DNA from: Gammaproteobacteria bacterium
GTDB lineage: Bacteria; Pseudomonadota; Gammaproteobacteria; SZUA-229
Assembly: GCA_026195895.1 (NCBI GenBank)
Contig: JAPHRO010000021.1
Location: 3,848 to 67,847 of the forward strand
DNA: 64,000 nucleotides
Direction: 5' to 3'
Each line of letters begins with the position of its first letter. Position 1 is the stretch's first letter. Both the position numbers and the translations under genes were made by a program. The notes beneath the pieces are model-generated. The model made no database searches, had not been told where the DNA came from, and saw only the letters and a list, made by a program, of their open reading frames with translations. This document shows, piece by piece, positions 1 through 60,276 of this stretch.

Positions 1-1423
1 CATTCTTGCTGCCATGGATTTTGCAAGTCCTTTCGCCCATAAAATAGCAGGTGTATTGCCATTTAATATTTTGAGAAGTTATCACACGCTTTTACAAATA
101 TTCTGGTTTTTTATGTGCTGGGTCGGATACACCATTTTCTTTTTACCACGATTAGCTCCAGTTCCAAAGTATCAGGAATTACTGATTAATGTGTTATTCG
201 TTATTTGTGTCATTGTTGGTTTTGGTGGTGTGTTTGGAATTTATTTTGGGCAATCAGGTATATTAACAGGTAGCGCTGCTTACTGGTTTGGTAGCCAGGG
301 CTGGGAATTTATGGAGTTAGGTCGTTTTTTCCAGATGCTATTGTTAGGCGGTTTTGCATTATGGATTTTTATTATTTATCGAGGAGTTAAACCCTGGATC
401 ACTAAAAAAACATTCTGGTCCATACCTGCCTGGCTATTGTGGGGTAGTGGAATAATGGTGTTTTTTCTTTTCTTTGGATTATTTGCCACCATTGACACTA
501 ACTGGGCGATCGCTGATTACTGGCGATGGATGGTGGTGCACATGTGGGTAGAAGTAACTTTTGAAGTATTCACCACGGTTATTGTCGGCTTTATTTTAGT
601 TCAGATGGGTCTGGTAACAAAAACAATGGCAGAGAAAACAATTTATCTGGCTGTCATGTTGTTTTTAATTACTGCAACGATTGGTGTGGCCCATAACTTC
701 TACTGGATTGCCAAACCCACCAGTGTAATTGCACTGGGCAGTGTTTTTTCAACCTTGCAGATATTGCCGTTATTGCTTTTAACACTAGACGCCTGGCAAA
801 TGAGAAAAGAAGGCAAAGGAGCTTATATTAACCAGGAAAATGGACATCAAACTTTTGTAATGGATGGAGTGTGGTTGTTCATACTGGCTGTGAATTTCTG
901 GAATATTTTTGGTGCCGGTGTATTGGGTTCATTAATCAATTTGCCCATTGTTAATTATTATGAACATGCAACCTATCTGACTGGAAATCATGCCCATGCC
1001 GCCATGTTTGGCGTAAAAGGCAACATAGCATTAGCCGGTGCATTGTTTTGTTGTCAGCATCTATTCAATACCGAAAGCTGGAATCCGAGGATTATCAAAC
1101 TGGCATTCTGGTCATTGAATATCGGTGTTGCCCTAATGATGTTCCTTGATCTGTTCCCGGTCGGCCTGTATCAATTATCCATCGTGCTAGATGATGGCTT
1201 GTGGCTGGCAAGAGCGCAACAAACCGTTACTGGAGGCGTATTCCAGACGCTGACATACTTTAGGTCAGTCGGCGGTCTGGTATTTGTTGTCGGCGTTTTG
1301 TCATTGATATGGTTTATTTTATCCAGGGGATTCATGCTAAAGCCTGAGATGGATGCGCCGTCGCAATCAGCAAATAGTGATAGTGATATTGATAGTGACT
1401 GGCAAGAACAAAAAGCTACCTGA
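1..1423 (+). CDS. norB: nitric oxide reductase large subunit (heme-copper oxidase family, qNor/NorB-like). The 5-prime end is cut by the window edge
   Basis: ORF 14..1423 is open to the window edge. It is a polytopic membrane protein with many conserved His (HNFYW, GNHAHAAMFG) and the HxWVE motif (HMWVEVTFE) typical of NorB. The length already exceeds cNorB, so a quinol-type fusion is likely. Confidence 0.5.
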   Translation, partial: ILAAMDFASPFAHKIAGVLPFNILRSYHTLLQIFWFFMCWVGYTIFFLPRLAPVPKYQELLINVLFVICVIVGFGGVFGIYFGQSGILTGSAAYWFGSQGWEFMELGRFFQMLLLGGFALWIFIIYRGVKPWITKKTFWSIPAWLLWGSGIMVFFLFFGLFATIDTNWAIADYWRWMVVHMWVEVTFEVFTTVIVGFILVQMGLVTKTMAEKTIYLAVMLFLITATIGVAHNFYWIAKPTSVIALGSVFSTLQILPLLLLTLDAWQMRKEGKGAYINQENGHQTFVMDGVWLFILAVNFWNIFGAGVLGSLINLPIVNYYEHATYLTGNHAHAAMFGVKGNIALAGALFCCQHLFNTESWNPRIIKLAFWSLNIGVALMMFLDLFPVGLYQLSIVLDDGLWLARAQQTVTGGVFQTLTYFRSVGGLVFVVGVLSLIWFILSRGFMLKPEMDAPSQSANSDSDIDSDWQEQKAT

Positions 1424-5050: not shown

Positions 5051-6031
5051 TCACCCCCCAGTGTAAGACATAAACCGTAGCACCTTTTCCGGATGCTCAT
5101 TGAATTCGTGTTTTTCCGGTTTTAAATTAACCGCTGTGCGAATCGCCTGTTCCAGTTCGGCATCAGAGATGCCGGCTCTCAATAAAGGCCGTAATTCAAA
5201 ATTATGGTTCTGGCCGAGACAGGTATAAATGGTGCCATCAACGGATATGCGTACCCGGTTGCAGGTTTCACAGAAGTGCTGCGATAGTGGGGTGATAAAA
5301 CCAATGTTGATATTGGTATCGACCACGTTCATGTAGCGAGCGGGTCCACCGCCTGGCATCACACCCGGCACCAGATCAAAACTTTTTTCCAGTCGCTGTT
5401 TGATTACTTTTAAATCGATGAATTGATCGGTCGCCTTGCGACCCATGTCGCCGACCGGCATGGTTTCGATGAAGCGTAAGGTAAAACCGTGTTCAATACA
5501 GAAGTCGACCATGGCTTCGACTTCGTTGTCGTTGATATCTTTCATCACCACCATGTTGACTTTAATCGGGCTGAGGCCGGCATCTTTGGCCGCCATCAGG
5601 CCATTTAATACTTTTTCCAGTTTGCCACCGGTGAGCTGTTTGAATTTGTCTGCATCGAGGCTGTCGAGGCTGACGTTGATGCGGTCGATGCCGGCAAGTT
5701 TAAGTTCCTCGGCGTGTTTATTCATGCGGGTGCAGTTGGTGCTGAGGGACAGGTCTTCCAGCCCGGGCAGGGCAGATAGCTGGCTGGCCAGCCTGGGCAG
5801 GTCTTTGCGCACCAGCGGTTCGCCGCCGGTGAGGCGTACCCGGCGGGTGCCGAGGCGAGTAAATGCAGCGATCACGCGTTCCAGCTCATCGAAGCTGAGC
5901 CATTCTTCCGGTTCGTGGAAATCATGGAACTGTTTGGGCATGCAGTAGCTGCAACGCAGGTCGCATCGGTCGGTAACCGATACTCGCACATAGTCGATAC
6001 TGCGTCCAAACTGGTCGATGAGCTGTGTCAT
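5051..6031 (-). CDS. moaA: GTP 3',8-cyclase, molybdenum cofactor biosynthesis protein A
   Basis: Radical-SAM motif CDLRCSYCMP and a C-terminal Cys cluster. Collinear with MoaA over its full length. Confidence 0.9.
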   Translation of the reverse strand: MTQLIDQFGRSIDYVRVSVTDRCDLRCSYCMPKQFHDFHEPEEWLSFDELERVIAAFTRLGTRRVRLTGGEPLVRKDLPRLASQLSALPGLEDLSLSTNCTRMNKHAEELKLAGIDRINVSLDSLDADKFKQLTGGKLEKVLNGLMAAKDAGLSPIKVNMVVMKDINDNEVEAMVDFCIEHGFTLRFIETMPVGDMGRKATDQFIDLKVIKQRLEKSFDLVPGVMPGGGPARYMNVVDTNINIGFITPLSQHFCETCNRVRISVDGTIYTCLGQNHNFELRPLLRAGISDAELEQAIRTAVNLKPEKHEFNEHPEKVLRFMSYTGG

Positions 6032-6392
6032 GGTGATGATTATACGTAACTGCTGGAAAACATATCCTTATTTTAAGTCAACTATGGAATAGTGAAATGA
6101 CATTTGACCCGAATAGCCGGGCCATAAAAAAATTATATACCTGTTGGGGTAGGTGTTGGCCATGATGATTTTTTATTGTTTTTAATAAAATCAGTTAAAA
6201 CAATAAGATAGGCTGGCGGAGGTGATTTTTTTAAATCTGCTGTACACTAGTTGGCTTACAGTTTGTTTGCGTTTCCGCAAAAAAATCGTACAGTAGTATA
6301 TAAGAAATTTATGAAACGCTTAACAATCGTGATTAGTCAGGCGTGTATCCGCTACCTATAATCGTCAGCCTTGTGTAAGGGCAGGACTCGTT

Positions 6393-9305
6393 ATGAAACA
6401 TTCCCCTCTAGTTGATCCCTCGGTGGCTGACAGTCGCATCGAGGTCAAAAACACCACCTGTTATATGTGTGCGTGCCGCTGTGGTATCCGCGTGACGCTG
6501 CGCGATGGTGAAGTGCGTTATATTCAGGGTAATCCTGATCATCCGCTTAACCAGGGTGTGATTTGTGCCAAGGGTGCCTCCGGTATCATGAAGCAGTATT
6601 CGCCGGCGCGTCTGACCAAACCCCTGTTGCGCAAACCCGGCACTGATCGAGGTGATGCCCAGTTCGATGAAATATCCTGGGATAAAGCCTTCGAGATCAT
6701 GGAAGAGCGGCTGACCCATTTGCGCGCTACCGACCCTAGCAAGTTCGCCCTGTTTACGGGCCGTGACCAGATGCAGGCGCTCACCGGCATGTTTGCCAAA
6801 CAGTTTGGTACGCCCAACTATGCGGCCCATGGTGGTTTCTGCTCGGTGAATATGGCCACTGGCATGATCTACACCATCGGTGGTTCTTTCTGGGAGTTCG
6901 GTGGACCGGATCTGGATCGTTCCAAATTGTTCATCATGATTGGTACGGCGGAAGACCATCACTCCAATCCGATGAAAATGGCCCTGTCCAAGTTCAAGCG
7001 TAATGGTGGTCGTTTCATTTCCATCAATCCGGTGCGCACCGGTTATTCGGCCATTGCCGATGAGTGGGTGCCGATCAAACCCGGCACCGACGGCGCATTA
7101 ATATTATGTCTGATTCGTGAGCTGATCGAGCAGGGTCTGTATGACCGTGACTTCCTGGTGCAATATTCGAATTCAGCGCAGCTAATCAACACCGATGAAG
7201 CTTCCGATGATCACGGTATGTTTATTCGTACCGAGACCGATAAAGAGGAAGGCTGTTTCGATCCGATGAATGAGCTGTGGTGGGATCGTCATACGGATAA
7301 AGCGGTCAAGACCCATACCGAAGGTGCTGATCCATTCTTAATGGGTGAGTTCACGCTGGAGGATGGTACCCCGGTAAAACCTGCGTTCCAGTTATTGAAA
7401 GATCAGGTTGAACAGTACACGCCGGAATGGGCGGAAGACGTCACCGGCATTCCCGCCGAGACGATTCGTCGTCTGGCCCACGAAATGGGTATCACTGCGC
7501 GTGATGAAAAAATTGAGCTGCCCATTTCCTGGACCGATGCCTGGGGCAAGGAACACGATACCATTACCGGTAATCCGGTGTCTTTCCATTCCATGCGCGG
7601 TACCGCAGCGCACTCTAATGGTTTCCAGACCATTCGAGCACTGGCTATATTAATGTCAATTCTGGGCACCATTGACCGACCCGGTGGTTTCCGTCACAAG
7701 GCGCCATTCCCGCGTCCGATTCCCCCCTGTGCGAAAACGCCAAAAGGGCCTGAAGGTGTTCAGCCCAATACACCGCTCGGTGGTATGCCTTTAGGCTGGC
7801 CGGCTGATCCGAATGATCTGTTTGTCGATGAAAACCAGAAACCGGTACGTATCGATAAAGCCTTCTCCTGGGAATTCCCGCTGTCGGCCCACGGCCTGAT
7901 GCATAACGTTATCACCAATGCCTGGCGCGGCGATCCCTATAGCATCGACACATTAATGATTTTCATGGCCAATATGGCGTGGAACTCGTCGATGAATACC
8001 AGTGAAGTGCGCAAGATGCTCAACGACAGGAATGAGGATGGCGAATACAGGATCCCGTTCATTATTGTGGCGGACGCCTTCCAGTCGGAAATGTCTGCTT
8101 ACGGTGATCTGGTGCTGCCGGATACGACTTATCTGGAGCGCCATGATGTGATGTCGATGCTGGATCGTCCGATTTCTGAATTCGATGGCCCGGTGGATTC
8201 GGTGCGTATCCCGGTGCTGCCGCCAAAGGGTGAATGCAAGCCGTTCCAGGAAGTGCTGATCGAGATGGGTTCGCGGCTAAAACTGCCCGCCTTCGTTAAA
8301 GAAGATGGCGCACGTAAATACCGCGACTACCCCGACTTTGTGGTCAACTACGAAACCGAGCCCGGTTCCGGTATCGGCTTCCTCGCCGGCTGGCGTGGCA
8401 AGGGTGGCGAGAAGTTCATGAAAGGTGAACCGAACCCGAACCAGTGGGAAATGTACGAAAAGAACAACTGTGTCTATCAGTATCATTTGCCCAAGTCTTA
8501 CCAGTACATGCGTAACTGGAACATGGGGTATTTAAGATGGGCGCAGGATCATCGCCTGACCCGTTATGCCGAGCCGATCAATATCCATATTTATTCGGAA
8601 GTGCTGCAGAAATTCCGTCTGGCAGCGCAGGGTAAACGCAAAGGCAAGCAGCCGCCGGATCATTTGCGCAAACGCGTCGAAGAGCATTTCAATCCGTTGC
8701 CGTTTTATTCCGAGCCGCTGGAAGCGCAGCTCACGGATAAACATAAGTACCCGCTGAATGCGCTGACTCAGCGTCCGATGGCCATGTACCATTCCTGGGA
8801 TTCACAGAATGCCTGGCTGCGTCAGATTCACGCGCATAACTACATGCATGTGCATCCATCGCTGGGTGCCAAACACGGCTTCGGCGATGGCGACTGGATC
8901 TGGGTGGAATCCATGCACGGCAAGGTGCGTTGTATGGCGCGCTTTTCCGAGGCGGTTGAGCCGGGCACTATCTGGACCTGGAATGCAGTGGGTAAAGCCT
9001 CCGGCGCCTGGAATCTGGATGGCAAGGCGAATGAATCCAGAAAAGGCTTCCTGCTGAATCATCTGATAGCCGAAGAACTGCCCGCCCATGAAGCCGGCGA
9101 GCATGTGTCCAATTCGGATCCGATCACCGGCCAGGCGGGCTGGTATGACGTGCGGGTGCGTATCTACAGGGCAAAAGATGACGAGCCAGAAGAAACCTGG
9201 CCGCAGTTCGATACTTTGCAGCCTTATCCGGGTATGGATAAACGTAAATCCTGGCTCGGCTTTTTTGCCGGCACGTTTACCAGGAAAGGGGGAGCAGGTA
9301 AATGA
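6393..9305 (+). CDS. soeA: Mo-bisPGD (DMSO reductase family) catalytic subunit, probably cytoplasmic. Likely sulfite dehydrogenase SoeA-like
   Basis: The N-terminal 4Fe-4S motif is C-x2-C-x-C-x-C at residues 23-30, with no twin-arginine leader. The likely Mo-ligand Cys is in HGGFCSVNMATG. 970 aa, followed by FeS and NrfD-type subunits. Confidence 0.5.
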   Translation: MKHSPLVDPSVADSRIEVKNTTCYMCACRCGIRVTLRDGEVRYIQGNPDHPLNQGVICAKGASGIMKQYSPARLTKPLLRKPGTDRGDAQFDEISWDKAFEIMEERLTHLRATDPSKFALFTGRDQMQALTGMFAKQFGTPNYAAHGGFCSVNMATGMIYTIGGSFWEFGGPDLDRSKLFIMIGTAEDHHSNPMKMALSKFKRNGGRFISINPVRTGYSAIADEWVPIKPGTDGALILCLIRELIEQGLYDRDFLVQYSNSAQLINTDEASDDHGMFIRTETDKEEGCFDPMNELWWDRHTDKAVKTHTEGADPFLMGEFTLEDGTPVKPAFQLLKDQVEQYTPEWAEDVTGIPAETIRRLAHEMGITARDEKIELPISWTDAWGKEHDTITGNPVSFHSMRGTAAHSNGFQTIRALAILMSILGTIDRPGGFRHKAPFPRPIPPCAKTPKGPEGVQPNTPLGGMPLGWPADPNDLFVDENQKPVRIDKAFSWEFPLSAHGLMHNVITNAWRGDPYSIDTLMIFMANMAWNSSMNTSEVRKMLNDRNEDGEYRIPFIIVADAFQSEMSAYGDLVLPDTTYLERHDVMSMLDRPISEFDGPVDSVRIPVLPPKGECKPFQEVLIEMGSRLKLPAFVKEDGARKYRDYPDFVVNYETEPGSGIGFLAGWRGKGGEKFMKGEPNPNQWEMYEKNNCVYQYHLPKSYQYMRNWNMGYLRWAQDHRLTRYAEPINIHIYSEVLQKFRLAAQGKRKGKQPPDHLRKRVEEHFNPLPFYSEPLEAQLTDKHKYPLNALTQRPMAMYHSWDSQNAWLRQIHAHNYMHVHPSLGAKHGFGDGDWIWVESMHGKVRCMARFSEAVEPGTIWTWNAVGKASGAWNLDGKANESRKGFLLNHLIAEELPAHEAGEHVSNSDPITGQAGWYDVRVRIYRAKDDEPEETWPQFDTLQPYPGMDKRKSWLGFFAGTFTRKGGAGK

Positions 9306-10033
9306 CCCAGTTAGCATTAGTAATAGACTTAAATGTCTGCGTTGGCTGTAGTGCCTGCGTAACCTCCTGTAAAGAATGGAATACTTCAGGTCCTGCGGGT
9401 TTTATGTCGGATGACAATCCCTATCAGGCAGAGCCCACCGGCACCTTCTTTAATCGCGTCCAAACTTACGAAGTCGGTTGTTTCCCGAATACGGAAACCA
9501 TTCACTTTCCGAAAAGCTGTCTGCATTGTGAAGATGCGCCCTGCGTGCCGGTGTGTCCCACCGGCGCCAGTTACAAACGCGAAGAAGACGGCATTGTGCT
9601 GGTGGATTACGACAAGTGCATCGGTTGTAAGTATTGTTCGTGGGCCTGTCCTTACGGCGCCCGTGAATTCGATGAGCACCAGAAGGTAATGAAAAAATGC
9701 ACCCTGTGTGTGGATCGTATTTATGACGAGTCATTACCCGAGTCCGAGCGGAAACCGGCCTGTGTATTGTCATGCCCAACCAGTGCGCGTCTGTTTGGTG
9801 ATGTGGAAGATCCCGAGTCCGAAGTATCGGTGGCGATTCGTGAAGAAGGTGGTTATCCATTGATGCCCGAGTGGGGCACCAAACCATCGAATCATTATTT
9901 GCCACGGCGTAAGCAGCATCTGCACATCCATGAGGATGAGCTGATACGCGCGGATAATCCGCTGAAGAAAGAAGAGCGTCAGCCTTCTGGACCGGTCGAT
10001 GCGCCGACACTGGACGATTCAACCAGTTGGTAG
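9302..10033 (+). CDS. soeB: 4Fe-4S dicluster iron-sulfur subunit (DmsB/PsrB/SoeB-like)
   Basis: Four Cys clusters of the CxxCxxCxxxCP type. The ATGA start overlaps the soeA stop. 243 aa. Confidence 0.6.
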   Translation: MTQLALVIDLNVCVGCSACVTSCKEWNTSGPAGFMSDDNPYQAEPTGTFFNRVQTYEVGCFPNTETIHFPKSCLHCEDAPCVPVCPTGASYKREEDGIVLVDYDKCIGCKYCSWACPYGAREFDEHQKVMKKCTLCVDRIYDESLPESERKPACVLSCPTSARLFGDVEDPESEVSVAIREEGGYPLMPEWGTKPSNHYLPRRKQHLHIHEDELIRADNPLKKEERQPSGPVDAPTLDDSTSW

Positions 10034-10050
10034 GATAACGATCCAGCTCA

Positions 10051-10139
10051 CCCCTGAGTGGTTCCATTTCTGCGTTGAAAAATGGACATTTGCATGTGCA
10101 AACTTACTTTTTTCGCCTTGATCTGGAACCACTCAGGGG
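10051..10139. repeat. nested inverted repeat (structured element) inside the operon
   Basis: The 16-nt arms CCCCTGAGTGGTTCCA and TGGAACCACTCAGGGG flank an inner perfect palindrome TTTGCATGTGCAAA and a smaller CCATTT/AAATGG hairpin. Confidence 0.5.
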
Positions 10140-10217
10140 CAACCTGAACCGTCATCATTTTAAAAATTTTATATATGTATGTGCGCATTAAATCGCACAC
10201 ACCCCAGGAGATAGAAC

Positions 10218-11195
10218 ATGCATCCCGCGTTTTCAGTCATATTTTTAACCACTCTGATCGGTGTCGGCCAGGGAATGTTTCTGGCCCTGTTTACCGGCCA
10301 GTCTTATGCAGCCGCGCACTTCCTGCCGGCGCAGGACAGTACCGGCTTTTTCGGTATCGGCAGCCTGATTGCGCTGCTGTTTCTGGTTGCCGGTCTGGTC
10401 GCTTCCGTTTTTCATCTGGGACGTCCGGAACGCGCCTGGCGTGCGGCAACCAAATGGCGTACTTCATGGTTATCGCGGGAAGTTATCGCGCTACCCATGG
10501 TGATGTTCTTCGTGTTTGTTTACGGCGTGATGCATTTCATGGAGTGGGATATGGTGATATTTTCCACTTCCACCGGCGTGACCTTTAAGCTGAGCCTGTT
10601 AGTGGGGGCGCTGGGTTCACTGGCGGTATTTACGCTATTCCTGTGTACGGCGATGATCTATGCAGCAATCAAATTCCTGCAGGAATGGGCGAGTCCGTTA
10701 ACCATTGTGAATTATCTGTTGCTGGGAACAGCCTCAGGATTTACCCTGGCCACGGCTTTCTCTATGTATACCGCGCCTGATCTGGTTGAATTCTATGGTG
10801 TCTGGGCGATTATTATTACGATCATGGCATTTGTGTCACGCAGTGCATCGTTAATCAGAAATTCACGCATCAAATTCAAATCGACCATCCAGTCTGCGAT
10901 TGGTGTACGCCATAATCAGATTGTGCAAAAGGCCCAGGGCGCTATGGGTGGCTCTTACAACACCCGTGAATATTTTCATGGCAAGCAGGCGCTGTTTCTG
11001 AAATCGATCAAATGGCTGTTTATGGTGTTAGTATTCCCGTTGCCGATTATTTTATTGTCGGCGGGCATGAGCAGCAGCAATGCAGAAGTCCTGCTGGTGG
11101 CATTTGTGGTCCAGTATGTTGGCCTAATGGCCGAGCGCTGGTTTTTCTTTGCCCAGGCAAATCATCCGCAGAATATTTATTATCAGACAGTTTAG
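10218..11195 (+). CDS. soeC: NrfD/PsrC-type polytopic membrane anchor subunit of the molybdoenzyme (SoeC-like)
   Basis: About 8 predicted TM helices. 325 aa. Third gene of the Mo enzyme cluster. Confidence 0.5.
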   Translation: MHPAFSVIFLTTLIGVGQGMFLALFTGQSYAAAHFLPAQDSTGFFGIGSLIALLFLVAGLVASVFHLGRPERAWRAATKWRTSWLSREVIALPMVMFFVFVYGVMHFMEWDMVIFSTSTGVTFKLSLLVGALGSLAVFTLFLCTAMIYAAIKFLQEWASPLTIVNYLLLGTASGFTLATAFSMYTAPDLVEFYGVWAIIITIMAFVSRSASLIRNSRIKFKSTIQSAIGVRHNQIVQKAQGAMGGSYNTREYFHGKQALFLKSIKWLFMVLVFPLPIILLSAGMSSSNAEVLLVAFVVQYVGLMAERWFFFAQANHPQNIYYQTV

Positions 11196-11220: not shown

Positions 11221-11248
11221 CAGGCGGTTATATCCGCCTGTTTTTTTT
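11221..11248 (+). terminator. rho-independent terminator after the membrane subunit gene
   Basis: CAGGCGG-ttatat-CCGCCTG followed by TTTTTTTT. Confidence 0.75.
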
Positions 11249-11354: not shown

Positions 11355-11924
11355 ATGTTAAAAAATATTACAGCAGTATTGGTTCTGGCTTTGTCGAGTA
11401 CACAGGTATTCGCCAGAGGTGTCGACCTGCGTTTGGCAAATGAAACAGCGGAAATAATTTACCTGACCGAGTCGTCCACATTTGGCTACGGTGGCGCTGA
11501 TGTCGGCTTTGGTGTTTTCTTTAATGAAGCCGATGACCTCATGCTGAGTGCTGATGTCATGATAACCGGGCACGGTGCCGGTAATAATCGTCCACTCCAG
11601 TTTGGCGTTGGTGGCAAACTGATGTTTGCTTCACTGGAGGTGCCGAATGAAGAAGTTGGTGCGCTGGCGATTGGCGGTCAGGTTCGTTATGTAATTCCAT
11701 CTTCCACACCGATTGCTTTTCTTGCTGCTGGGTTTTTTGCACCATCCATTACCAGCTTTAGCGATGCCGATGATTTTACCGAATTCCGCCTGGCGGTCGA
11801 GCTGGAAGTTACGCCAAGTGCCCGTGCTTATCTGGGCTGGCGCAACATGGAATACGAACTGGAAAATGGAACAGAAGTAGAGCTGGATGATGATGTTCAT
11901 TTTGGTGTAAAAGTTGAGTTTTAA
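11355..11924 (+). CDS. small secreted/outer-membrane beta-barrel-like protein
   Basis: Signal peptide MLKNITAVLVLALSSTQVFA. The C-terminus ends VKVEF (terminal Phe typical of OMPs). Confidence 0.4.
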   Translation: MLKNITAVLVLALSSTQVFARGVDLRLANETAEIIYLTESSTFGYGGADVGFGVFFNEADDLMLSADVMITGHGAGNNRPLQFGVGGKLMFASLEVPNEEVGALAIGGQVRYVIPSSTPIAFLAAGFFAPSITSFSDADDFTEFRLAVELEVTPSARAYLGWRNMEYELENGTEVELDDDVHFGVKVEF

Positions 11925-27154: not shown

Positions 27155-28426
27155 TTATGCTTTGCCTTTCCATGGTACAAGCGTATTTTCAGCCTTGCGC
27201 ATGAGAATGTCGATGCCATATCCAATAAGACCGATCAAAATTATACCCATGATAACAACGTCTGTTTGTTGAAATTTTGATGCGGCGATAATCATCTTAC
27301 CGGCGCCTTTTTCGGCGGCCACTAATTCGGCGGCCACCACGGTGCCCCAGCAGACCCCCATGGCAACTCGGGCGCCGGTAAATATTTCAGGTAATGAGTT
27401 GGGTATGATGACGTGGGTTAATAGCTGGCGTTTTGAGGCGCCCAGGGAATAGGCAGCATGCACTTTAGCAATGTTGATGCCAGAAACACCTGCCCGTGCC
27501 GCAATGGTCATGATCCAGAGTGCGGCAAGAAAGAGCAGGCTGATTTTTCCGGTTTCCCAGATGCCAAACCAGATGATAACTAACGGGATAAGCGCCAGTG
27601 GCGGAATGGGCCGCATGAATTCCACGATGGGATCAAACCAGCCGCGGAACCAGTTGTTCAAACCCATTGCATAGCCGAGCGGAATGCCGACTAAACTGCC
27701 GAGTAGAAAACCGACGATTACGCGTAGCAGCGACCAGCCGACATTCTCCAGCAGGGTCACGTTCTGATAGCCATCGCGAGCAATTTCAATCAGCCGTGAG
27801 AGTACTGCTTCGGGTGGTGGCAGCCAGATGGGTTCCATTTGCCAGCCTTTATCCGGTGTAAATGACAGGCTGCCTTTTTTAGTCATACTAACAACACCAT
27901 TGGCGACAATAACGGATTGTTGCGGCGTGATCGTTTGCCCATTGATCCTGACTACACGATAGGTTTTTTCCTTGCCGCCGGTATCATTTTTCTGTACGCG
28001 AATAAGTTTGCTGCGCCAGGCAGCCACGTGCAAGACATCGTCGTTGGCAAAGCCTGTTTGATCTCTGGTCGAGACTGGAGGTTTGCCTGTTTTTTCCCCG
28101 ATGGGGAAAACGCGAATATAAACTGAAGCATGGTCAGTTTGGTGTTGAGCATTAATTGCAGTGTAGCTAAAAGATGTGTCGCCGATAAATGGCCCGGGTA
28201 CATGCACCGGGGAAAACTTCGAGCCGGTGAAGGCGCCCCAAATCAAAAATAACGTCATGATAGAAATAACGGAAGCGGCTCGGTTTGGACTGACTGCGCT
28301 TTCATCACCAAAGGTTACCGTTTTACGTTGGTTATAGTCCTGTTTTGCATGTCGGTGTCTGGCAACGGTCTGATAAATAAAATAGGCCAGTAAAAAAATA
28401 CTGATATAGATGGCAAGGATCAACAT
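27155..28426 (-). CDS. ABC transporter permease (NitT/TauT family) with an extended N-terminal periplasmic domain
   Basis: The C-terminal half is a TauC/SsuC-like permease with an EAA loop. About 150 extra N-terminal residues include a TM segment. Confidence 0.65.
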   Translation of the reverse strand: MLILAIYISIFLLAYFIYQTVARHRHAKQDYNQRKTVTFGDESAVSPNRAASVISIMTLFLIWGAFTGSKFSPVHVPGPFIGDTSFSYTAINAQHQTDHASVYIRVFPIGEKTGKPPVSTRDQTGFANDDVLHVAAWRSKLIRVQKNDTGGKEKTYRVVRINGQTITPQQSVIVANGVVSMTKKGSLSFTPDKGWQMEPIWLPPPEAVLSRLIEIARDGYQNVTLLENVGWSLLRVIVGFLLGSLVGIPLGYAMGLNNWFRGWFDPIVEFMRPIPPLALIPLVIIWFGIWETGKISLLFLAALWIMTIAARAGVSGINIAKVHAAYSLGASKRQLLTHVIIPNSLPEIFTGARVAMGVCWGTVVAAELVAAEKGAGKMIIAASKFQQTDVVIMGIILIGLIGYGIDILMRKAENTLVPWKGKA

Positions 28427-28430
28427 CGTG

Positions 28431-29243
28431 TTATGCCTTCATCCCCATAATGTCTTCTTCCATTTCCCAGATCATGCTAAGAATTTCTTCACGTCGTTGA
28501 TTAAAATCCGGATGTTTTTTTATATTACGCAAATCAGTGTCAACGGCCATGTCGGCAAAAGGCAATTGATATTCCCGATGAATGTGACCGGGTCTGGGGG
28601 CCATGACAAGCAGTCGCTCACCCAGTAGTAAGGCTTCTTCTACCGAGTGAGTGATCAGGATGATGGTCTTGCCGGTTTCTTTCCAGAGTTTAAGTATCAG
28701 GCTCTGCATTTTTTCACGGGTTAAGGCATCCAGCGCACCCAGAGGTTCGTCCATCAGAATGACGTCGGGATCATTGGCAAGGCAGCGGGCCAGTGCGACG
28801 CGTTGTTGCATGCCGCCGGAAAGTTCATAGACTGCTTTGTTGGCAAAACCATTCAGGCCGACGGTTTCCAGCAGTGCATCCACTCGCGGTCGAATTTGTG
28901 TTTCTGCCATGCCTTGCATGGCAGGGCCAAAACCAATGTTTTTTCGTACATTCATCCATTCAAACAGTGCGCCCTGCTGGAACACCATGCCGCGCTCAGC
29001 GCCCGGGCCGGTGACTTGATGGCCATTCAGCATAACCTGGCCATCGGTAGGTGTAAGAAAACCTGCAACAATGTTTAACAGGGTGCTTTTGCCACAGCCA
29101 GATGGGCCTAAAATCGACAGCAGTTCGCCTTTGCGCAGATCGATTGAAACATTTTTCAAAGCATCAACGTCGTTGCCATCGGGCAGCTTGAACGTCATTG
29201 ATATATTGTTGATGTGTAAACTGGATTTTCTGGATGTATGCAA
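28431..29243 (-). CDS. ABC transporter ATP-binding protein (TauB/SsuB-like)
   Basis: Walker A GPSGCGKST, signature LSGGMQQRVALARCL, Walker B ILMDEP. Confidence 0.85.
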   Translation of the reverse strand: MHTSRKSSLHINNISMTFKLPDGNDVDALKNVSIDLRKGELLSILGPSGCGKSTLLNIVAGFLTPTDGQVMLNGHQVTGPGAERGMVFQQGALFEWMNVRKNIGFGPAMQGMAETQIRPRVDALLETVGLNGFANKAVYELSGGMQQRVALARCLANDPDVILMDEPLGALDALTREKMQSLILKLWKETGKTIILITHSVEEALLLGERLLVMAPRPGHIHREYQLPFADMAVDTDLRNIKKHPDFNQRREEILSMIWEMEEDIMGMKA

Positions 29244-29266
29244 GAAACTAACTCGTCTATTGATGC

Positions 29267-30262
29267 TTACAGTTTTGATGCGGCTTCGAGATAGCTGGCA
29301 TCGACGGCATCATCATAATTGTCGCGCGCTTCTGGAATAATGTGTTGTTCGACAAAAAAATCAGCGACCTGTTTAAGGAATTGTTGAGTGCCGCCACCCA
29401 GCCATTTTTCACTGAGTTGTGCCTTGATGTCGGGAAAGGAAAAGCTGGCCATGGTTTCTTTGGCGGTATTTTCTTTCATGCCGGCTGCTTTGGCGATTAC
29501 GCCCAGCATTTCGCCAGAGTGATCGGTTGTATATCTGGTATTCATATCGGCCGTTACTTTGAGGAAGCTTGCCAGTAAATCTGGATTCTCCTGTGCCCAT
29601 TGAGCGGATACCGTGGTGGCATCAAATACCTGAATGCCCAGTTGTTCTTTTTCCGCACCCGTAAATAGTACATGACCATGCTCTTTCATGCGACGCAACG
29701 CGCCACCCCAGCCGCAGACCATATCCAGATTGCCGTTTGCAAATGCGGCTGCGCCATCGGCTGGTGCCATGTCGACGATTTTCATGGTTGTTGTGTCGAC
29801 GCCTAAATGTTCCATCTGTTTCAGGAACCCGTAATGTGCGGCGGTACCAATCGGTACCCCTGCCTGTTTGCCTGCCAGTTCCTGGGCGTTGTCTTTGCTG
29901 ATTTCCAGACTGGAGCGCACGACGCAGTTTTCGTTTTCCGAATAGGAAACGGCAATGTCGACTATTTGCAGATCCTGTCCGGCTGATGCGGCAACAACAA
30001 AGGGCGGAATGCCCTGTGAAAAGGATATTTGTACATCCCCCGACGCCATGGCTGCCGACATGGCAGTGCCAGCATCAAAAGAAACCCAGTTAATATCTAC
30101 CTCAAGTGCCTCGTCATAGATTTGTTTTACCTGTGCAAATTGATTCGGTGTTGGCCATTCCAGAAAATAACCGACGGTAATGGTTTCTGCATTGGCGATG
30201 CCTGCGCTTGTTAGTAGCACACTTAGGTATAAACTATTAAGCCCGGTTTTTAATGATTGCAT
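29267..30262 (-). CDS. ABC transporter substrate-binding protein (taurine/aliphatic sulfonate NitT family-like)
   Basis: Signal peptide. About 331 aa. Located in an operon with the permease and ATPase. Confidence 0.6.
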   Translation of the reverse strand: MQSLKTGLNSLYLSVLLTSAGIANAETITVGYFLEWPTPNQFAQVKQIYDEALEVDINWVSFDAGTAMSAAMASGDVQISFSQGIPPFVVAASAGQDLQIVDIAVSYSENENCVVRSSLEISKDNAQELAGKQAGVPIGTAAHYGFLKQMEHLGVDTTTMKIVDMAPADGAAAFANGNLDMVCGWGGALRRMKEHGHVLFTGAEKEQLGIQVFDATTVSAQWAQENPDLLASFLKVTADMNTRYTTDHSGEMLGVIAKAAGMKENTAKETMASFSFPDIKAQLSEKWLGGGTQQFLKQVADFFVEQHIIPEARDNYDDAVDASYLEAASKL

Positions 30263-40776: not shown

Positions 40777-42444
40777 ATGTCTGAAAATGCTGCACAGCAG
40801 GCTTTCAATGCCTTGCTGGAACAATATTATAAAGCCTGGTTTCGATTTCATCCGGAGCAGGCAGTACAAGTTGGTGTGAGTGGTTATGAAACCCTGTTAC
40901 GTGCCTATAGTGACGATGATATAGGCGCGCTGATCTCATTAAATGAAAAGGTTTTATCAACTCTGGATGAAATGGATTTTTCCTTGCTGAATGCCGAGCA
41001 GCAGATCGATTATTCCATCCTTTATAACTCGGTGGTCATTGAGCTGCATGAACTGCTGGAACGGGATTGGCGGTATCGCAATCCGCAGGATTTTGTGCCG
41101 GTGGAAGCGATCCATCAGCTATTGACCCGTCCCGTCGAGCAGCTACATAAAGCGCTCAAACATCGATTGCAGCAGGTGCCGGAATATTTGCGAGGTGCGC
41201 GTACCTGTTTATCCGCCAGGCCAGAGCTGATTCCCCCTGAGTGGCTACAAAATGCCCTTCGGCAGGCAATCACGGGTGCTAATTATTTTCGGGATTTACC
41301 GCGCCATCCAGTGGTTATGCAGAAATTCCAGAATCCGGCACGCATGCAGCCGGTATGTGATGAAGCCGCAGCGGCGATGGAGGAATTTGCACGATTTCTG
41401 GAGCATGATCTGGCGCCAAAAGCGACAGGTGACTTTGCCTGTGGTGAAACGTTTTTCCAGGGCTTGCTCAGTGAAGCGCATTTTCTGGATGTGTCTACAG
41501 ACCAGTTGCATCAGTTCGGTGAAAAACTGTTCGAGCAGACAGTTGAGCAATTGAAGTCCCTTGCGCAGGAGATGCATGGTAGTGATGATCTGGAAGGGGC
41601 GCTGGCAGCGATCCGATGTGACCACCCCAAAGGCGGCCCCGAGGCGCTATTAAGCGCCTATCGCACCCGAATGAAAGCGGCTTATGATTTTGTAAAAGAG
41701 CATCAACTGGTGAGTGTACCGGAGAATCAGGCGCTTAAGGTACTGGATACCCCCGAGTTTTTGCGTCACGAAATTCCTTTCGCGGCTTATGAAGAGCCCA
41801 CCTACAGGGATGAGGCGCAACGTGGTTATTATTATGTGACGCCAGTGATGTCTGAAGACCATCTGCTGGAACATAACTGGACATCCATTGATCTGACCTG
41901 TGTCCATGAAGCCTTTCCCGGGCATCATTTGCAGTTTGTAACGGCAAATTTGAATCCTGCCAACAGCCTGCCAAGATTGCTCAATGCCTCGGCAACGTTG
42001 TATGAAGGCTGGGCTTTATATTGTGAAGATTTAATGCAGGAGCAGGGCTTCCTGGATAAACCTGAGCACCAGTTTATTATGCTGCGCGACCGCCTGTGGC
42101 GTGCCCTGCGGGTGATGCTGGATGTGGAATTGCAGACCCGTGGCCTGACTATCGATGAGGCGGCCCAGCGCATGTGTACTGAACTGGGCTTTAGTATTGA
42201 TCAGGCCAGAGCGGATATCAGTTGGTATACCCAGGCACCGACTACGCCAATGGGTTATGCCACGGGCTGGGCGCTGATCAGGGCGCTTCGTGAGCAGCAG
42301 GCGCAGCACGATGATTTTAATTTGAAAGATTTTCACGATAAATTGCTTTCAGTGGGATCCTGTGCCCTGCCGCTGGTCATCAAGCGCGCCTTTGGCGAGC
42401 AGGCCTGGCAACAGGCAAGAGATAGCGTATTCGGCTCCGCCTAG
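40777..42444 (+). CDS. DUF885 family protein (putative metallopeptidase-like)
   Basis: 555 aa with HEAFPGHH, as in DUF885 proteins. Confidence 0.5.
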   Translation: MSENAAQQAFNALLEQYYKAWFRFHPEQAVQVGVSGYETLLRAYSDDDIGALISLNEKVLSTLDEMDFSLLNAEQQIDYSILYNSVVIELHELLERDWRYRNPQDFVPVEAIHQLLTRPVEQLHKALKHRLQQVPEYLRGARTCLSARPELIPPEWLQNALRQAITGANYFRDLPRHPVVMQKFQNPARMQPVCDEAAAAMEEFARFLEHDLAPKATGDFACGETFFQGLLSEAHFLDVSTDQLHQFGEKLFEQTVEQLKSLAQEMHGSDDLEGALAAIRCDHPKGGPEALLSAYRTRMKAAYDFVKEHQLVSVPENQALKVLDTPEFLRHEIPFAAYEEPTYRDEAQRGYYYVTPVMSEDHLLEHNWTSIDLTCVHEAFPGHHLQFVTANLNPANSLPRLLNASATLYEGWALYCEDLMQEQGFLDKPEHQFIMLRDRLWRALRVMLDVELQTRGLTIDEAAQRMCTELGFSIDQARADISWYTQAPTTPMGYATGWALIRALREQQAQHDDFNLKDFHDKLLSVGSCALPLVIKRAFGEQAWQQARDSVFGSA

Positions 42445-42445
42445 T

Positions 42446-43753
42446 ATGACGACATCCATCGACTATACCGATGCGGCAAACTGGCTGGCCTATGATGTAG
42501 ACCATATCTGGCATCCCTATACCAATGTCTGCAAACCATCCCCCGTGTTTCCCGTGGTGGCTGCTGAGGGCGTGATGATAGAACTGGCTGATGGCCGCAG
42601 GCTGGTCGATGGCATGGCATCATGGTGGGCGGCTATTCATGGTTACAATCAGCCGGTGCTAAATCAGGCAATCGAAACCCAGCTCAAGTCAATGTCGCAT
42701 ATTATGTTTGGCGGTCTGACCCATGAGCCTGCGGTTCGTCTGGCTGAAACATTAATCAATATCACTGCTGATTCCCTGCAGCATGTTTTTCTGGCGGATT
42801 CGGGTTCGGTGTCTGTAGAAGTTGCCATGAAGATGGCGTTGCAGTACCAACTGGCGCGAGGCAATAAAAATAAAACCAGATTGTTGTCGTTTCGCAATGC
42901 CTATCATGGCGATACGTTTGGCGCCATGTCAGTTTGTGATCCGGTTAATGGTATGCACAGTTTGTTTCAGGGCGTGCTGGCGCAACATTATTTTGCCGAT
43001 GCGCCGATATGTAATGAACAGGGACAGGCGGATAATTTTGAGGATTTTGAAAATTTAATCAGGCGACAGCATAACGAGATTGCTGCGGTGATACTGGAAC
43101 CGATGGTGCAGGGTGCCGGTGGTATGCGGATGTATTGTGCTGATTACCTGCATAAAGTACGGGCTTTGTGTGATGAGTTAAATGTATTACTCATCCTGGA
43201 TGAAATAGCCACAGGTTTTGGCCGCACTGGAAAATTATTTGCCTATGAACATGCGGGCATAAGGCCGGATATTCTATGCCTGGGTAAGGCGCTGACCGGT
43301 GGTTATATGACCCTGGCGGCTACCCTGACGTCCAGGCATATAGCTGAGACTATTGGTGGGGGTGAGCCGGGTAATTTGATGCATGGCCCGACGTTTATGG
43401 CAAACCCACTGGCCTGTAGTGTTGCCAGTGCCAGTATTAACTTGTTGCTTGCGTCACCCTGGCAGGCTCGAATTGATCGCATCGAAAAGCAGATGCGAGC
43501 CGAATTGCAGCGGTGTCAGGAATTATCCGCGGTTAAAAATGTCAGAGTAATGGGCGCAATAGGTGTTGTTGAATTGCAGTGCGAGATCGATATGCACTGG
43601 ATACAGCCGAGGTTTGTCGAGCTAGGTGTCTGGCTTAGGCCATTTAATAATCTGATTTACATTATGCCGCCTTATATTATTGAGACAGAACAGCTCAGTA
43701 AAATCACCTCAGCGATATTTACAGTCGTTACTGAATTAAGCGTTAGTAAATAA
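42446..43753 (+). CDS. bioA: adenosylmethionine-8-amino-7-oxononanoate aminotransferase
   Basis: Class III aminotransferase with the BioA-typical N-terminus (IWHPYT) and PLP lysine region. Start moved to the ATG immediately after the DUF885 stop. Confidence 0.85.
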   Translation: MTTSIDYTDAANWLAYDVDHIWHPYTNVCKPSPVFPVVAAEGVMIELADGRRLVDGMASWWAAIHGYNQPVLNQAIETQLKSMSHIMFGGLTHEPAVRLAETLINITADSLQHVFLADSGSVSVEVAMKMALQYQLARGNKNKTRLLSFRNAYHGDTFGAMSVCDPVNGMHSLFQGVLAQHYFADAPICNEQGQADNFEDFENLIRRQHNEIAAVILEPMVQGAGGMRMYCADYLHKVRALCDELNVLLILDEIATGFGRTGKLFAYEHAGIRPDILCLGKALTGGYMTLAATLTSRHIAETIGGGEPGNLMHGPTFMANPLACSVASASINLLLASPWQARIDRIEKQMRAELQRCQELSAVKNVRVMGAIGVVELQCEIDMHWIQPRFVELGVWLRPFNNLIYIMPPYIIETEQLSKITSAIFTVVTELSVSK

Positions 43754-45020: not shown

Positions 45021-45875
45021 ATGGAAGTTGAATCCCTGTTTGATGAGCGAACCTTTACCTTAACCCATATTGCTTATGATCCGGTTAGCCTGGACGCTGT
45101 CATATTTGATCCGGTGCTGGATCTCGATACTGTTGCATGGAAAACATATACAGATAGCCTGCATGCTGTTGATCAGTTTATACAGGGCAATAATCTAAAA
45201 TTGCACTACGTGATTGATACCCATGTTCATGCGGATCATCTTTCTGGCATGCAGTATTTGAAAAAACATTATCAAGTTCCTTTAGTGATTAATGCTTCTA
45301 TTACCCAGGTTCAGGAAATATTTAAAGACACATTTAATTTGCCAGATGATTTCCATGTTGATGCTCGGCAGTTCGATATTTTAGTTAACGATGCGGACTG
45401 TTTAACCGCTGGCACATTGCATATAGATGTTATTCATACGCCGGGCCATACCCCGGCATGTACCAGTTATAAAATTGATGATGCAGTTTTTACCGGCGAC
45501 GCGCTGTTTATGCCAGACATTGGCACTGGTCGGTGTGATTTTCCAAAAGGAAGTGCCCGTGATTTATATTATTCAATTAAAGAAAAACTATATAAACTGC
45601 CTGACGATACACGTGTTTATCCGGGGCATGACTATCCTCAAAATAGAGCGTTAAGAACATGGACAACGATTCTGGAAAGTAAGCAGTCTAATGTCGACTT
45701 AAATAATTCACGAAGTGAGCAGGATTACGTTAGTTTTATGCAGCAGCGGGATGCCAGGCTTCCTCTGCCGAGATTGATTTACCAAAGTGTGCAGGTAAAT
45801 ATCAATGCAGGGCAACTGCCCGACGCAGAAGCCAATGGCCGACGATATTTAAAAATACCGATTGAAAGTCAATAG
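45021..45875 (+). CDS. MBL-fold metallo-hydrolase
   Basis: HxHxDH motif (DTHVHADHLSG) plus downstream His/Asp ligands. Confidence 0.75.
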   Translation: MEVESLFDERTFTLTHIAYDPVSLDAVIFDPVLDLDTVAWKTYTDSLHAVDQFIQGNNLKLHYVIDTHVHADHLSGMQYLKKHYQVPLVINASITQVQEIFKDTFNLPDDFHVDARQFDILVNDADCLTAGTLHIDVIHTPGHTPACTSYKIDDAVFTGDALFMPDIGTGRCDFPKGSARDLYYSIKEKLYKLPDDTRVYPGHDYPQNRALRTWTTILESKQSNVDLNNSRSEQDYVSFMQQRDARLPLPRLIYQSVQVNINAGQLPDAEANGRRYLKIPIESQ

Positions 45876-46804: not shown

Positions 46805-47410
46805 ATGATGTCTGCTGAAATTCCTTTACAGGCGACCAGAATAGTCGTAACCAACAAAAAAGAATTACCAGGTGATTTCGCCATCTGGATGTTTATTTTT
46901 GCGGAATTACTGGTGTTTGGCGTGTTTTTTCTGACTTATGCCATTGTGCGCAGCAATAATATTGAACTATTTAACCAGTCACAGTTGCTGCTCGATAGAG
47001 GCCTGGGACTGATTAATACAGTCGTGCTGATTACCAGCAGTTATTTTGTGGTACGTGCGGTGCTGGCTATCCAGAAAAACGAATCGACTAGATGTGTTTT
47101 CTGGCTCAATTTGTCAATAGCCACCGGAATGGTTTTTATTTTTATAAAGATTTTCGAGTTTTACAGCAAGTTTAGTCAGGGTATAAATCTGAGCACCAAT
47201 GCTTTTTATACTTACTATATCTCAATGACCTTTTTTCATTTTATGCATGTAATTTTAGGTCTGGTGATATTAACCGCGGTAATGTTAAAAGCAAAGCGAG
47301 GCGGTTATTCGGCAATGGATCATACGGGTGTGGAGACGGGTGCATCCTATTGGCACATGGTTGATCTGGTATGGATTGTCCTGTTCCCGCTTGTTTATTT
47401 AATGAGGTGA
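46805..47410 (+). CDS. norE: cytochrome c oxidase subunit III family protein (NorE-like)
   Basis: About 5 TM helices with a CoxIII-like fold and 201 aa. Not linked to coxAB or cyoAB. An FNR-type box lies upstream. Confidence 0.45.
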   Translation: MMSAEIPLQATRIVVTNKKELPGDFAIWMFIFAELLVFGVFFLTYAIVRSNNIELFNQSQLLLDRGLGLINTVVLITSSYFVVRAVLAIQKNESTRCVFWLNLSIATGMVFIFIKIFEFYSKFSQGINLSTNAFYTYYISMTFFHFMHVILGLVILTAVMLKAKRGGYSAMDHTGVETGASYWHMVDLVWIVLFPLVYLMR

Positions 47411-56710: not shown

Positions 56711-57194
56711 CCGCTGTTATCGAGTTGTACCGCCAACCCTGGTAGTGGCACTAATGCTAATGATGTTGCCGTTGCCGGACTGGGCGCAGGCTTTTCGTCC
56801 GGACTGGGTAACGCTGGTGGTGATTTACTGGATAATGGCTGTGCCCGAAAACGTTGGTGTGACTGTTGCCTGGATTTTTGGTCTGTTGCTGGACGTTACT
56901 CAGGGTTCAATTTTAGGCCAGCATGCCATTGGCCTGGTGCTGGTGGCTTATCTGGTGCAACTACAGTATTTGCGTATTCGCGTATATTCTCTGGTGCAGC
57001 AATCATTAGTGGTTTTTGTGTTGTTAATGATTAAGCAGCTGCTGGTGCTCTGGGTAAACGGCATCGTAGGGCAGGCGCCCGATGATTTGGCCAGTTATTT
57101 TTTACCCAGTCTGATGGGCGCCATTATCTGGCCCTGGTTATTTGTGATTTTACGCGATATTCGTCGGCGTTTTACCCACACCAAAATATTCTAA
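56700..57194 (+). CDS. mreD: rod shape-determining protein MreD
   Basis: 5-TM protein of about 164 aa. Its ATG overlaps the mreC stop. ORF 56538 was trimmed. Confidence 0.8.
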   Translation: MLDSRCYRVVPPTLVVALMLMMLPLPDWAQAFRPDWVTLVVIYWIMAVPENVGVTVAWIFGLLLDVTQGSILGQHAIGLVLVAYLVQLQYLRIRVYSLVQQSLVVFVLLMIKQLLVLWVNGIVGQAPDDLASYFLPSLMGAIIWPWLFVILRDIRRRFTHTKIF

Positions 57195-58669: not shown

Positions 58670-58742
58670 ATTTGAGCCCGTTATATATATGTGTTATTAC
58701 AACTAACTATATTATTAATCTTATAAAAACGCATCTTTAGCT

Positions 58743-59603: not shown

Positions 59604-59671
59604 GAGTTCAAAACAGGGCATTTCGTCTGAAAACTGGCTCAATTAGCATTTAATTTGATAAATAATATAGA

Positions 59672-59685
59672 ATATCGGCCGATAT
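59672..59685. promoter_or_regulatory. perfect 14-bp palindrome ATATCGGCCGATAT (candidate operator) in an AT-rich leader
   Basis: Lies in the 277-bp AT-rich region upstream of the tandem paralog genes, flanked by TATAGA/TATATCTA half-repeats. Confidence 0.35.
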
Positions 59686-59880
59686 CGTTGTTATATCTAT
59701 AACGAAATTATCATAGTGATTTTTCCCTAATATCGTAATTTTTGTGATCAATCAACGGAAAGTGCTTGATAAATCATTGAAAAATACTATTAATTGTAGG
59801 TATTCAGGTTGTCCAGCTTAATCAATATGTGATCTGATTAACAGCGGGCTTCTAGCGTAAATATTAGACTTTAGTTGTGA

Positions 59881-60276
59881 TTGGAGTATTTGACGGTAAT
59901 GAGTATTCAATATAGCTCTGATAGCCAATATGCAGGACATTTGCCGCAGCGAGATGTAAGTAGTACTGCGCGGCTATTTAATTTTAATCGTCCAGTGTAT
60001 ATGACCGATTCAGTTTGGCATGATTGTGTTGAGTTAATGGATCGGAATGGCAAGACTATTGATGAACTGGCGGTACTGCAGCGTTTAAGGCATGTGCTTT
60101 TTATGGCGTCTAGCGCTTTACATGGTCGGGTAAAAGATGTGGAATGTGAATTTCGTATTCATCGTGTGCCTAATGATAAAAAGGCTCGCCACCCTGAAGC
60201 CACTACGCTCAAGATAGAAGCTCATTCAGATCAGTTCAATCAACCCGTTATTACTATTAAACATCCTAATGAGTAG
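59881..60276 (+). CDS. hypothetical protein, paralog 1 of a tandem pair, no recognised family
   Basis: Shares a core of about 100 aa with the next ORF (STARLFNFxRPVYMTxxVWxDCVEL...DELAVLQRLRHVLFMAxSALHGR...PVITIKxP). Confidence 0.5.
   Translation: MEYLTVMSIQYSSDSQYAGHLPQRDVSSTARLFNFNRPVYMTDSVWHDCVELMDRNGKTIDELAVLQRLRHVLFMASSALHGRVKDVECEFRIHRVPNDKKARHPEATTLKIEAHSDQFNQPVITIKHPNE

Follow-up and report, generated by a model that had tools for sequence, protein, structure and literature searches.

SoeABC, a membrane-bound sulfite:quinone oxidoreductase (EC 1.8.5.6), belongs to an already known and widespread family; it has been known since 2012–2013 and is routinely annotated in the genomes of sulfur oxidizers, and a further copy is in itself of little discovery value. 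The enzyme of Allochromatium vinosum (Alvin_2491–2489) was reportedly described by Dahl and co-workers in 2013, and its subunits presumably have masses of about 109, 27 and 36 kDa (compare Table 1). Like its orthologues from Thioalkalivibrio and other genera, it is encoded in the order A–B–C and combines a leaderless molybdenum bis(pyranopterin guanosine dinucleotide) (Mo-bisPGD) subunit carrying an N-terminal Fe–S site with a four-cluster ferredoxin and a haem-less anchor of the NrfD/DmsC family. The SoeABC of Aquifex aeolicus, of which aq_1231 is the SoeC subunit, has been characterized biochemically (Boughanemi et al., 2020). Here, we analyse a 64,000-nucleotide stretch of gammaproteobacterial DNA (contig JAPHRO010000021.1, positions 3,848 to 67,847 of the forward strand; hereafter the window), in which a three-gene locus shows the architecture of the A. 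vinosum enzyme. We conclude, with a probability of roughly 0.88, that this locus is an ordinary soeABC operon encoding a sulfite:quinone oxidoreductase whose catalytic side faces the cytoplasm. No substantive difference from A. vinosum-type SoeABC was found; the particulars of the window locus are a divergent moaA gene and a 184-nt, repeat-bearing spacer between soeB and soeC.

A scan for open reading frames (ORFs) reproduced exactly, in coordinates and in size, the three genes that an earlier, sequence-only reading of the window had listed (970, 243 and 325 residues; Table 1). The first two overlap by 4 bp (ATGA), through which soeB is translationally coupled to soeA, and soeC is preceded by its own AGGAG ribosome-binding site. 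An intrinsic terminator ends the operon; it was read from the sequence, and a pattern scan flagged the same stem on the opposite strand. Upstream, a promoter-like site lies 31 nt 5' of the soeA start, within the 361-bp AT-rich spacer that separates soeA from moaA. It is listed as a candidate only, because sites of this kind are no more numerous in the region than in shuffled sequences.

The location of the catalytic subunit follows from its N-terminus. Translation of the upstream frame shows in-frame stop codons immediately 5' of the ATG at position 6393, which makes a longer N-terminus, and with it a twin-arginine translocation (Tat) leader, impossible. The 22 residues ahead of the first cysteine motif, MKHSPLVDPSVADSRIEVKNTT, are consequently the entire N-terminus of SoeA, and they contain no RR pair. 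The sequence-only reading had likewise described a leaderless protein starting directly with CYMCACRCG (residues 23–31), and the case that it had held in reserve, a Tat leader reached from an alternative start further upstream, is ruled out by the stops. Signal peptides were sought as RR or Tat-like motifs, both on N-termini and on maximal ORFs. When the ORFs are extended as far as they go, a Tat-like motif is still missing from 76 of the 77 SoeA relatives whose N-terminus lies on the contig, and the sole regular-expression match (locus L016) falls far upstream of the conserved start. This absence is not an artefact of the method, since the same listing does reveal an RR leader in each of the Tat-dependent references, namely TtrA, Escherichia coli DmsA, an E. 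coli plasmid molybdoenzyme (H22) and two deeper relatives, P0131 and P0286. SoeB, for its part, begins directly at its first cluster motif.

The cofactor ligands can also be read from SoeA. The protein matches the Pfam families Molybdop_Fe4S4, Molybdopterin and Molydop_binding, and its first cysteines form the FS0 pattern C23-x2-C26-x3-C30-x27-C58. In an alignment of 81 family members, 370 of the 970 positions are invariant, and C23, C26, C30, C58 and C150 are conserved in every sequence that covers the position. Cys150 lies within HGGFCSV (residues 146–152), the motif whose Cys had been singled out as a probable molybdenum ligand in the sequence-only reading. In a HMMER alignment it falls on Cys173 of Thermus thermophilus PsrA (PDB entry 2vpw), a residue reported to be the Mo ligand of that enzyme by Jormakka and co-workers in 2008. 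Invariant and so aligned, Cys150 is probably the Mo ligand of SoeA.

Family membership is supported by sequence and gene order alike. A genome scan gave the 80 closest loci (L001–L080), all of them from Gamma- and Betaproteobacteria, across which SoeA is 75–85% identical. Those with names belong to known sulfur- or iron-oxidizing lineages (Thioalkalivibrio, Sedimenticola, Candidatus Thiodiazotropha, lucinid symbionts, Cocleimonas, Gallionella, Sideroxydans and Sulfuricella); Allochromatium is absent among these 80. The soeB gene comes after soeA in 78 of the 80 loci and soeC in 71, the gaps lying at contig ends. In a large protein search, the best homologues are 80–92% identical over the full length. 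Three of the matches (P0003, which is 90% identical, P0091 and P0097) bear the Joint Genome Institute (JGI) name 'sulfite dehydrogenase (quinone) subunit SoeA', and the NCBI names of the others are generic, their sources being Thioalkalispiraceae, Thiohalomonadales, Ectothiorhodospiraceae and hydrothermal-vent metagenomes. The contig of P0003 repeats the order of the window: an epimerase, EamA, moaA on the reverse strand, soeA, soeB, a DmsC-family anchor, YfaZ and, later, MazG. In a published survey of 75 Thioalkalivibrio genomes, soeABC was found by BLAST with the A. vinosum proteins ADC63403–01 together with operon structure, and all soeA genes fell into one orthologue group; the window protein shares 76% identity with the SoeA of the Thioalkalivibrio strains ALJ17 and ALJ3. 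A tblastn search of 72,556 plasmids returned full-length matches of 50–70% identity (Paraburkholderia, Burkholderia, Azospirillum and Rhizobium), followed by matches of at most 26%. By these comparisons, the SoeA family is discrete and tightly conserved.

Phylogenetic placement, which the sequence-only reading had named as a way of checking its assignment, agrees with this picture. In a small neighbour-joining tree, the window SoeA lies inside the tight Gamma/Beta SoeA clade, beside the metagenome-assembled genome (MAG) L002. The SoeA of an xsc-linked Azospirillum operon forms the sister branch (52% identical to the window protein), and TtrA, the E. coli plasmid molybdoenzyme and E. coli DmsA stand far off, at 23–25% identity. 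With no leader possible, with this degree of identity and with the A–B–C order kept alongside sulfur oxidizers, the cytoplasm-facing SoeABC that had been proposed from the sequence is well supported. Deeper relatives of SoeA (P0131, P0286 and P0125; 32–38% identity by BLASTP) have RR (Tat-type) or signal-like N-termini, which suggests that SoeA came to face the cytoplasm secondarily, by losing its leader in an otherwise periplasmic group.

The two smaller subunits complete the assignment. SoeB matches Pfam Fer4_11 (85.6 bits) and has sixteen cysteines in four groups, all retained without exception in the 77 relatives compared, in keeping with the four-cluster ferredoxin of the sequence-only reading; a seventeenth cysteine (C60) is not conserved. 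SoeC matches Pfam DmsC (PF04976) with 54.2 bits and NrfD with 29.8 bits. Its earlier description as an NrfD/PsrC-type anchor is therefore right in that NrfD is matched, and needs amending in that the Pfam scores put DmsC first and NrfD second. The same reading had held that a DmsC-type membrane subunit would speak against SoeABC. This expectation was ill-posed: among SoeC-family proteins, the published Thioalkalivibrio anchors included, DmsC is matched by 27 of 27 and NrfD by 11 of 27, and because the SoeC family itself matches DmsC better than NrfD, the SoeABC call stands. RefSeq labels the anchors of SoeABC-like operons in Paraburkholderia and Azospirillum as 'DmsC/YnfH family', and a review assigns DmsC and SoeC to one NrfD-like superfamily.

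SoeC has eight hydrophobic segments, corresponding to eight transmembrane (TM) helices. Its loops 2, 4 and 6 contain 16 Lys and Arg residues, and its loops 1, 3, 5 and 7 none; over 70 members of the family, the means are 15.6 for the even loops and 1.1 for the odd loops. By the positive-inside rule, this bias predicts that the long basic loops are cytoplasmic and that SoeC has an N-in/C-in topology, which fits a cytoplasmic SoeAB. The predicted topology is the reverse of that of E. coli DmsC, which shows the opposite bias when aligned to the SoeC family (two versus six Lys and Arg over the homologous loops). Similarly, both termini of PsrC lie on the membrane's positive side (P-side), and SoeC has been 'expected to be inverted' in a review of the NrfD-like superfamily.

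Seven SoeC residues (S6, H66, S83, S86, E88, R307 and H316) are invariant in a 27-sequence alignment. Calisto and Pereira list Ser6, His65, Ser82, Ser85, Glu87, Arg297 and His306 as conserved in A. aeolicus SoeC; as far as residue numbering goes, these have counterparts in the invariant residues of the window protein at offsets of +1 and +10, although A. aeolicus (Aquificae) is phylogenetically distant from the window organism. In addition, H66 aligns with His65 and R307 with Arg271 of DmsC. Like the window operon, E. coli DmsABC thus has an anchor of the DmsC Pfam family, with an HLGxP motif holding the quinol-site His and an Arg in TM8. Membership in DmsABC/YnfEFGH was nevertheless rejected: the anchor is the only subunit that shares its family, SoeA reaches 165 bits with the dimethyl sulfoxide reductase model TIGR02166 (cut-off 777.7), and E. 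coli DmsA, which has an RR leader, is 23% identical.

As to substrate, reaction direction, type of quinone and origin of the sulfite, we infer the following scheme. Made without signal peptides, SoeA and SoeB would remain in the cytoplasm, and sulfite would be oxidized to sulfate at the Mo-bisPGD centre of SoeA, with Cys150 as the probable ligand. Electrons would then pass from FS0 (C23/C26/C30/C58) through the four [4Fe–4S] clusters of SoeB to the quinone site of SoeC, using five Fe–S clusters in total. The HLGxPERAWR loop after TM2 and the quinone pocket of SoeC (H66, S83, S86 and E88) would face the cytoplasm, i.e. the negative side (N-side); no redox loop would be expected, since sulfite oxidation and quinone reduction would take place on the same side of the membrane. 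The acceptor is likely to be ubiquinone, because a COQ7 gene is present in the window. As for its role, the enzyme would likely catalyse the last step of lithotrophic sulfur oxidation, clearing cytoplasmic sulfite that comes from rDsr, sHdr or persulfide dioxygenase (PDO). Within the window, a 284-residue protein of the metallo-β-lactamase (MBL) fold matches the dioxygenase half (positions 143–421) of Blh (NF040641, 287 bits). Blh is a bifunctional sulfurtransferase/persulfide dioxygenase, and the window protein could supply SoeABC with sulfite made in the cytoplasm.

Several points weigh against the assignment. What ties the window operon to the SoeABC of A. vinosum and A. aeolicus is a set of published orthologue calls together with names given by the JGI, and, according to the literature consulted, the function of the family has been addressed only by genetics in A. 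vinosum and biochemistry in A. aeolicus. No sox, dsr, hdr or apr genes were found within the 64-kb window, and the lifestyle of a sulfur oxidizer is for this reason taken from the relatives. In Beggiatoa leptomitoformis, PDO is active in aerobic conditions, and no SoeABC was detected in them, which makes a link from PDO to Soe speculative. Lastly, NCBIfam holds no equivalog for SoeA. The window protein reaches none of the NCBIfam equivalog cut-offs, and its best match there is PhsA (NF012032) with 228.4 bits, one third of the cut-off of 694; lower scores still were obtained with the models for DmsA/YnfE, formate dehydrogenase, ArrA, TtrA and NasC.

This last match bears on the alternative that the sequence-only reading had offered, a novel cytoplasmic reductase of the Psr/Phs/Sre kind that would pass electrons from quinol to polysulfide, thiosulfate or sulfur. 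PhsA is the nearest curated family, and T. thermophilus PsrABC (PDB entries 2VPW–2VPZ), the closest solved structure, shares with the window enzyme the ABC cofactor chain and a Cys at the aligned Mo-ligand position. However, the match of PsrA to SoeA amounts to 132 bits in partial stretches, PsrAB is periplasmic whereas the window SoeA is leaderless, and Psr is a reductase whereas Soe is an oxidase. Membership in the periplasmic PsrABC/PhsABC enzymes was rejected on the absence of a Tat leader and on the PhsA score. A Psr/Phs-like reductase is very unlikely, because SoeA has no leader, shares identity and synteny with SoeA proteins, some of them so named by the JGI, and is distant from the Tat-dependent Ttr and Dms references. 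The large invariant core of the SoeA family and its co-occurrence with oxidative sulfur pathways in the literature also argue against this direction of the reaction.

The scarcity of direct functional evidence for SoeABC, which the literature stresses, leads to a second alternative, namely that the window enzyme belongs to the SoeA-like clade, in which assays cover very few proteins, but has some oxyanion different from sulfite as its substrate. We give this hardly any credence: a change of substrate is improbable at such identity within a Gamma/Beta clade that holds the genetically studied A. vinosum-type operons, and the window context gives no hint of another substrate.

A third alternative accepts SoeABC but changes its purpose. 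In the manner of Ruegeria pomeroyi, the enzyme could mainly detoxify sulfite from organosulfonates such as taurine, fed by the Tau-like transporter at 27–30 kb that the sequence-only reading had considered to fit such a role. Sulfonate-linked versions do exist in the Alphaproteobacteria, with the same three subunits and an anchor of the DmsC/YnfH family; on a plasmid of Azospirillum sp. TSH58 (L083, 3851–10781), a SoeABC-like operon is followed by one small hypothetical ORF and then by xsc, the gene for sulfoacetaldehyde acetyltransferase. The best NCBIfam matches of the window transporter are indeed TauA, TauB and TauC, but all three scores fall below the cut-offs (172.9 against 304.25, 279.6 against 357 and 224.1 against 342 bits, respectively). 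The transporter also lies 16 kb from soeABC and on the other strand, beyond genes for MazG, a phosphate transporter, MltF, type II secretion system (T2SS)-related proteins, an M48 peptidase, Dus, a porin and a methyl-accepting chemotaxis protein (MCP). Unlike the Azospirillum operon, that of the window has no sulfonate-catabolic neighbours, and xsc, tauXY and tpa are absent from the window. Furthermore, the xsc-linked alphaproteobacterial SoeA stands at the 52% identity of the sister branch, well below that of the lithotroph proteins. A mainly sulfonate-linked role is thus improbable, if somewhat less remote than the two preceding alternatives, and the fit seen between transporter and SoeABC did not hold up. 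The only class-III aminotransferase in the window was considered as taurine:pyruvate aminotransferase (Tpa) and rejected; it is BioA, with 660 bits against a cut-off of 625. The permease ORF of the transporter has 423 residues from its first start codon, compared with about 275 for TauC, and its transporter domain starts only at residue 197, implying that the protein has an N-terminal extension or that its start was called too far upstream.

Returning to the SoeABC operon, its divergent neighbour moaA was confirmed with 386.7 bits to TIGR02666 (cut-off 284) and with the Pfam families Radical_SAM and Mob_synth_C. MoaA catalyses the first step of molybdenum cofactor (Moco) synthesis, and the sequence-only reading had taken its presence as fitting SoeABC. 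That remark is consistent with our comparison, in a modest form: in 18 of the 80 related loci, soeA has moaA no more than 10 kb away, arranged either divergently upstream or just downstream. The association is a real but modest tie to cofactor supply, recurrent and non-obligatory. A Moco riboswitch was sought in the moaA–soeA spacer and none was found, and at gathering thresholds no Rfam family is matched anywhere in the window.

The spacer between soeB and soeC, which ranges from 5 to 320 nt among the relatives L001–L080, carries in the window a 127-nt hairpin with a fold energy of −60.1 kcal/mol (z = −5.98). Among spacers of at least 60 nt, 22 of 35 fold with z < −3, compared with none of 35 coding controls, the sole type of control; the downstream side of soeB thus repeatedly bears a stable stem-loop, also in spacers of unrelated sequence. 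The hairpin itself is dispersed. A 22-base pattern from its apical region was found in nine metagenome contigs (L086–L094), none of them beside soe genes, and copies occupy the guaB–guaA, dapB–fabD and lysA–pdxH spacers as well as a position upstream of accB. It occupies the same soeB–soeC position in three diverged genomes: the window, the MAG L006 (13600–13741) and the Cocleimonas MAG L073 (5072–5201); the closest relative, L095, has a weak match there. Each of the 13 copies found occupies a spacer that separates housekeeping genes or precedes one, and all are co-oriented with the flanking genes. The hairpin matches no Rfam family; its sub-threshold matches, to generic miRNA-precursor hairpins at 17–22 bits against cut-offs of 83–100, were dismissed. 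An integron attC site was rejected as well, because the contexts are housekeeping operons and not gene cassettes.

In these properties the hairpin resembles an intercistronic palindrome of the ERIC or REP kind, a dispersed element family that lies outside the definition of SoeABC. The other view is that it is a functional element of the transcript and not a selfish palindromic repeat, which would make it a new RNA family of uncultured sulfur-oxidizing Gammaproteobacteria. RNAalifold predicts 43 pairs for a 12-copy alignment, and 22 of these have compensatory double changes, compared with 12.7 ± 1.7 in shuffles and 2–9 in slid controls, although in a palindromic repeat such covariation can have its origin in the DNA as well; paired cells amount to 92.8%, versus 81.2% in shuffles. 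The covariance model R1 scores 119–146 bits on the forward strand and 50–79 bits on the reverse, the window copy reaching 133 bits. The co-orientation of the 13 copies, the covariation of about half of the pairs and the soeB–soeC position shared by three genomes would be compatible with a role at the RNA level, which we regard as a minority view, with the odds clearly against it. If it applied, the hairpin could act as an intercistronic stabilizer or as a site of processing and thereby govern the ratio of SoeAB to SoeC, and likewise in guaBA, dapB–fabD and lysA–pdxH.

Core chromosomal genes such as rpe-gph-trpEGD, crp, gatCAB and mreBC make up the remainder of the window, whose features Table 1 collects together with those of the operon. 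A 189-residue protein encoded 3' of the soeC terminator has a signal-peptide-like N-terminus and no Pfam match at 1e-5; a homologue stands at the same place in five closer relatives, and on the P0003 contig the protein there is YfaZ (PF07437). Two haem-copper oxidase-like subunits are encoded 45 kb apart, namely a COX1-family protein (Pfam, 163 bits; no NCBIfam match) and a lone COX3/CyoC-like protein that falls below all cut-offs. Another region combines an AAA ATPase, of which only the CDC48/FtsH-like ATPase domain is recognizable, with a response regulator and three ORFs without a family match (286, 131 and 128 residues).

Table 1. Features of the soeABC operon and of the remaining window (positions refer to the 64,000-nucleotide stretch)
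Feature	Position	Strand	Remarks
soeA, Mo-bisPGD catalytic subunit	6393-9305	+	970 aa, 109.9 kDa, ATG start
soeB, ferredoxin subunit with four [4Fe-4S] clusters	9302-10033	+	243 aa, 27.2 kDa
soeC, haem-less quinone-interacting membrane anchor, NrfD/DmsC superfamily	10218-11195	+	325 aa, 36.1 kDa
moaA (GTP 3',8-cyclase), divergent from soeA	5051-6031	-	326 aa
Candidate promoter TAGTCA-17-TATAAT	6334-6362	+	10/12 consensus positions matched
Hairpin element in the soeB-soeC spacer	10031-10157	+	127 nt; arms 10034-10066 and 10124-10156
Intrinsic terminator 3' of soeC	11221-11248	+	CAGGCGG/CCGCCTG stem, 6-nt loop, T8 run
Protein 3' of the soeC terminator	11355-11924	+	189 aa
ABC transporter, NitT/TauT superfamily	27155-30262	-	best matches TauA/B/C, all below curated cut-offs
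bioA, class-III aminotransferase	42362-43753		
MBL-fold protein, Blh dioxygenase half	45021-45875	+	284 aa
COX1-family protein	14-1423	+	469 aa
COX3/CyoC-like protein	46805-47410	+	201 aa
AAA ATPase, response regulator and three ORFs	57191-60677		ATPase of 492 aa
COQ7 gene	61366-62055		

The identification of soeABC in the window is thus right but ordinary, and the hairpin is the only potentially new item at the locus. For the family, the charge analysis over 70 SoeC proteins offers a simple confirmation, at the level of sequence, of an inverted topology that had only been hypothesized in the literature. For the organism, the operon serves as a marker, suggesting that the window comes from a sulfur-oxidizing gammaproteobacterium in which sulfite is produced in the cytoplasm.

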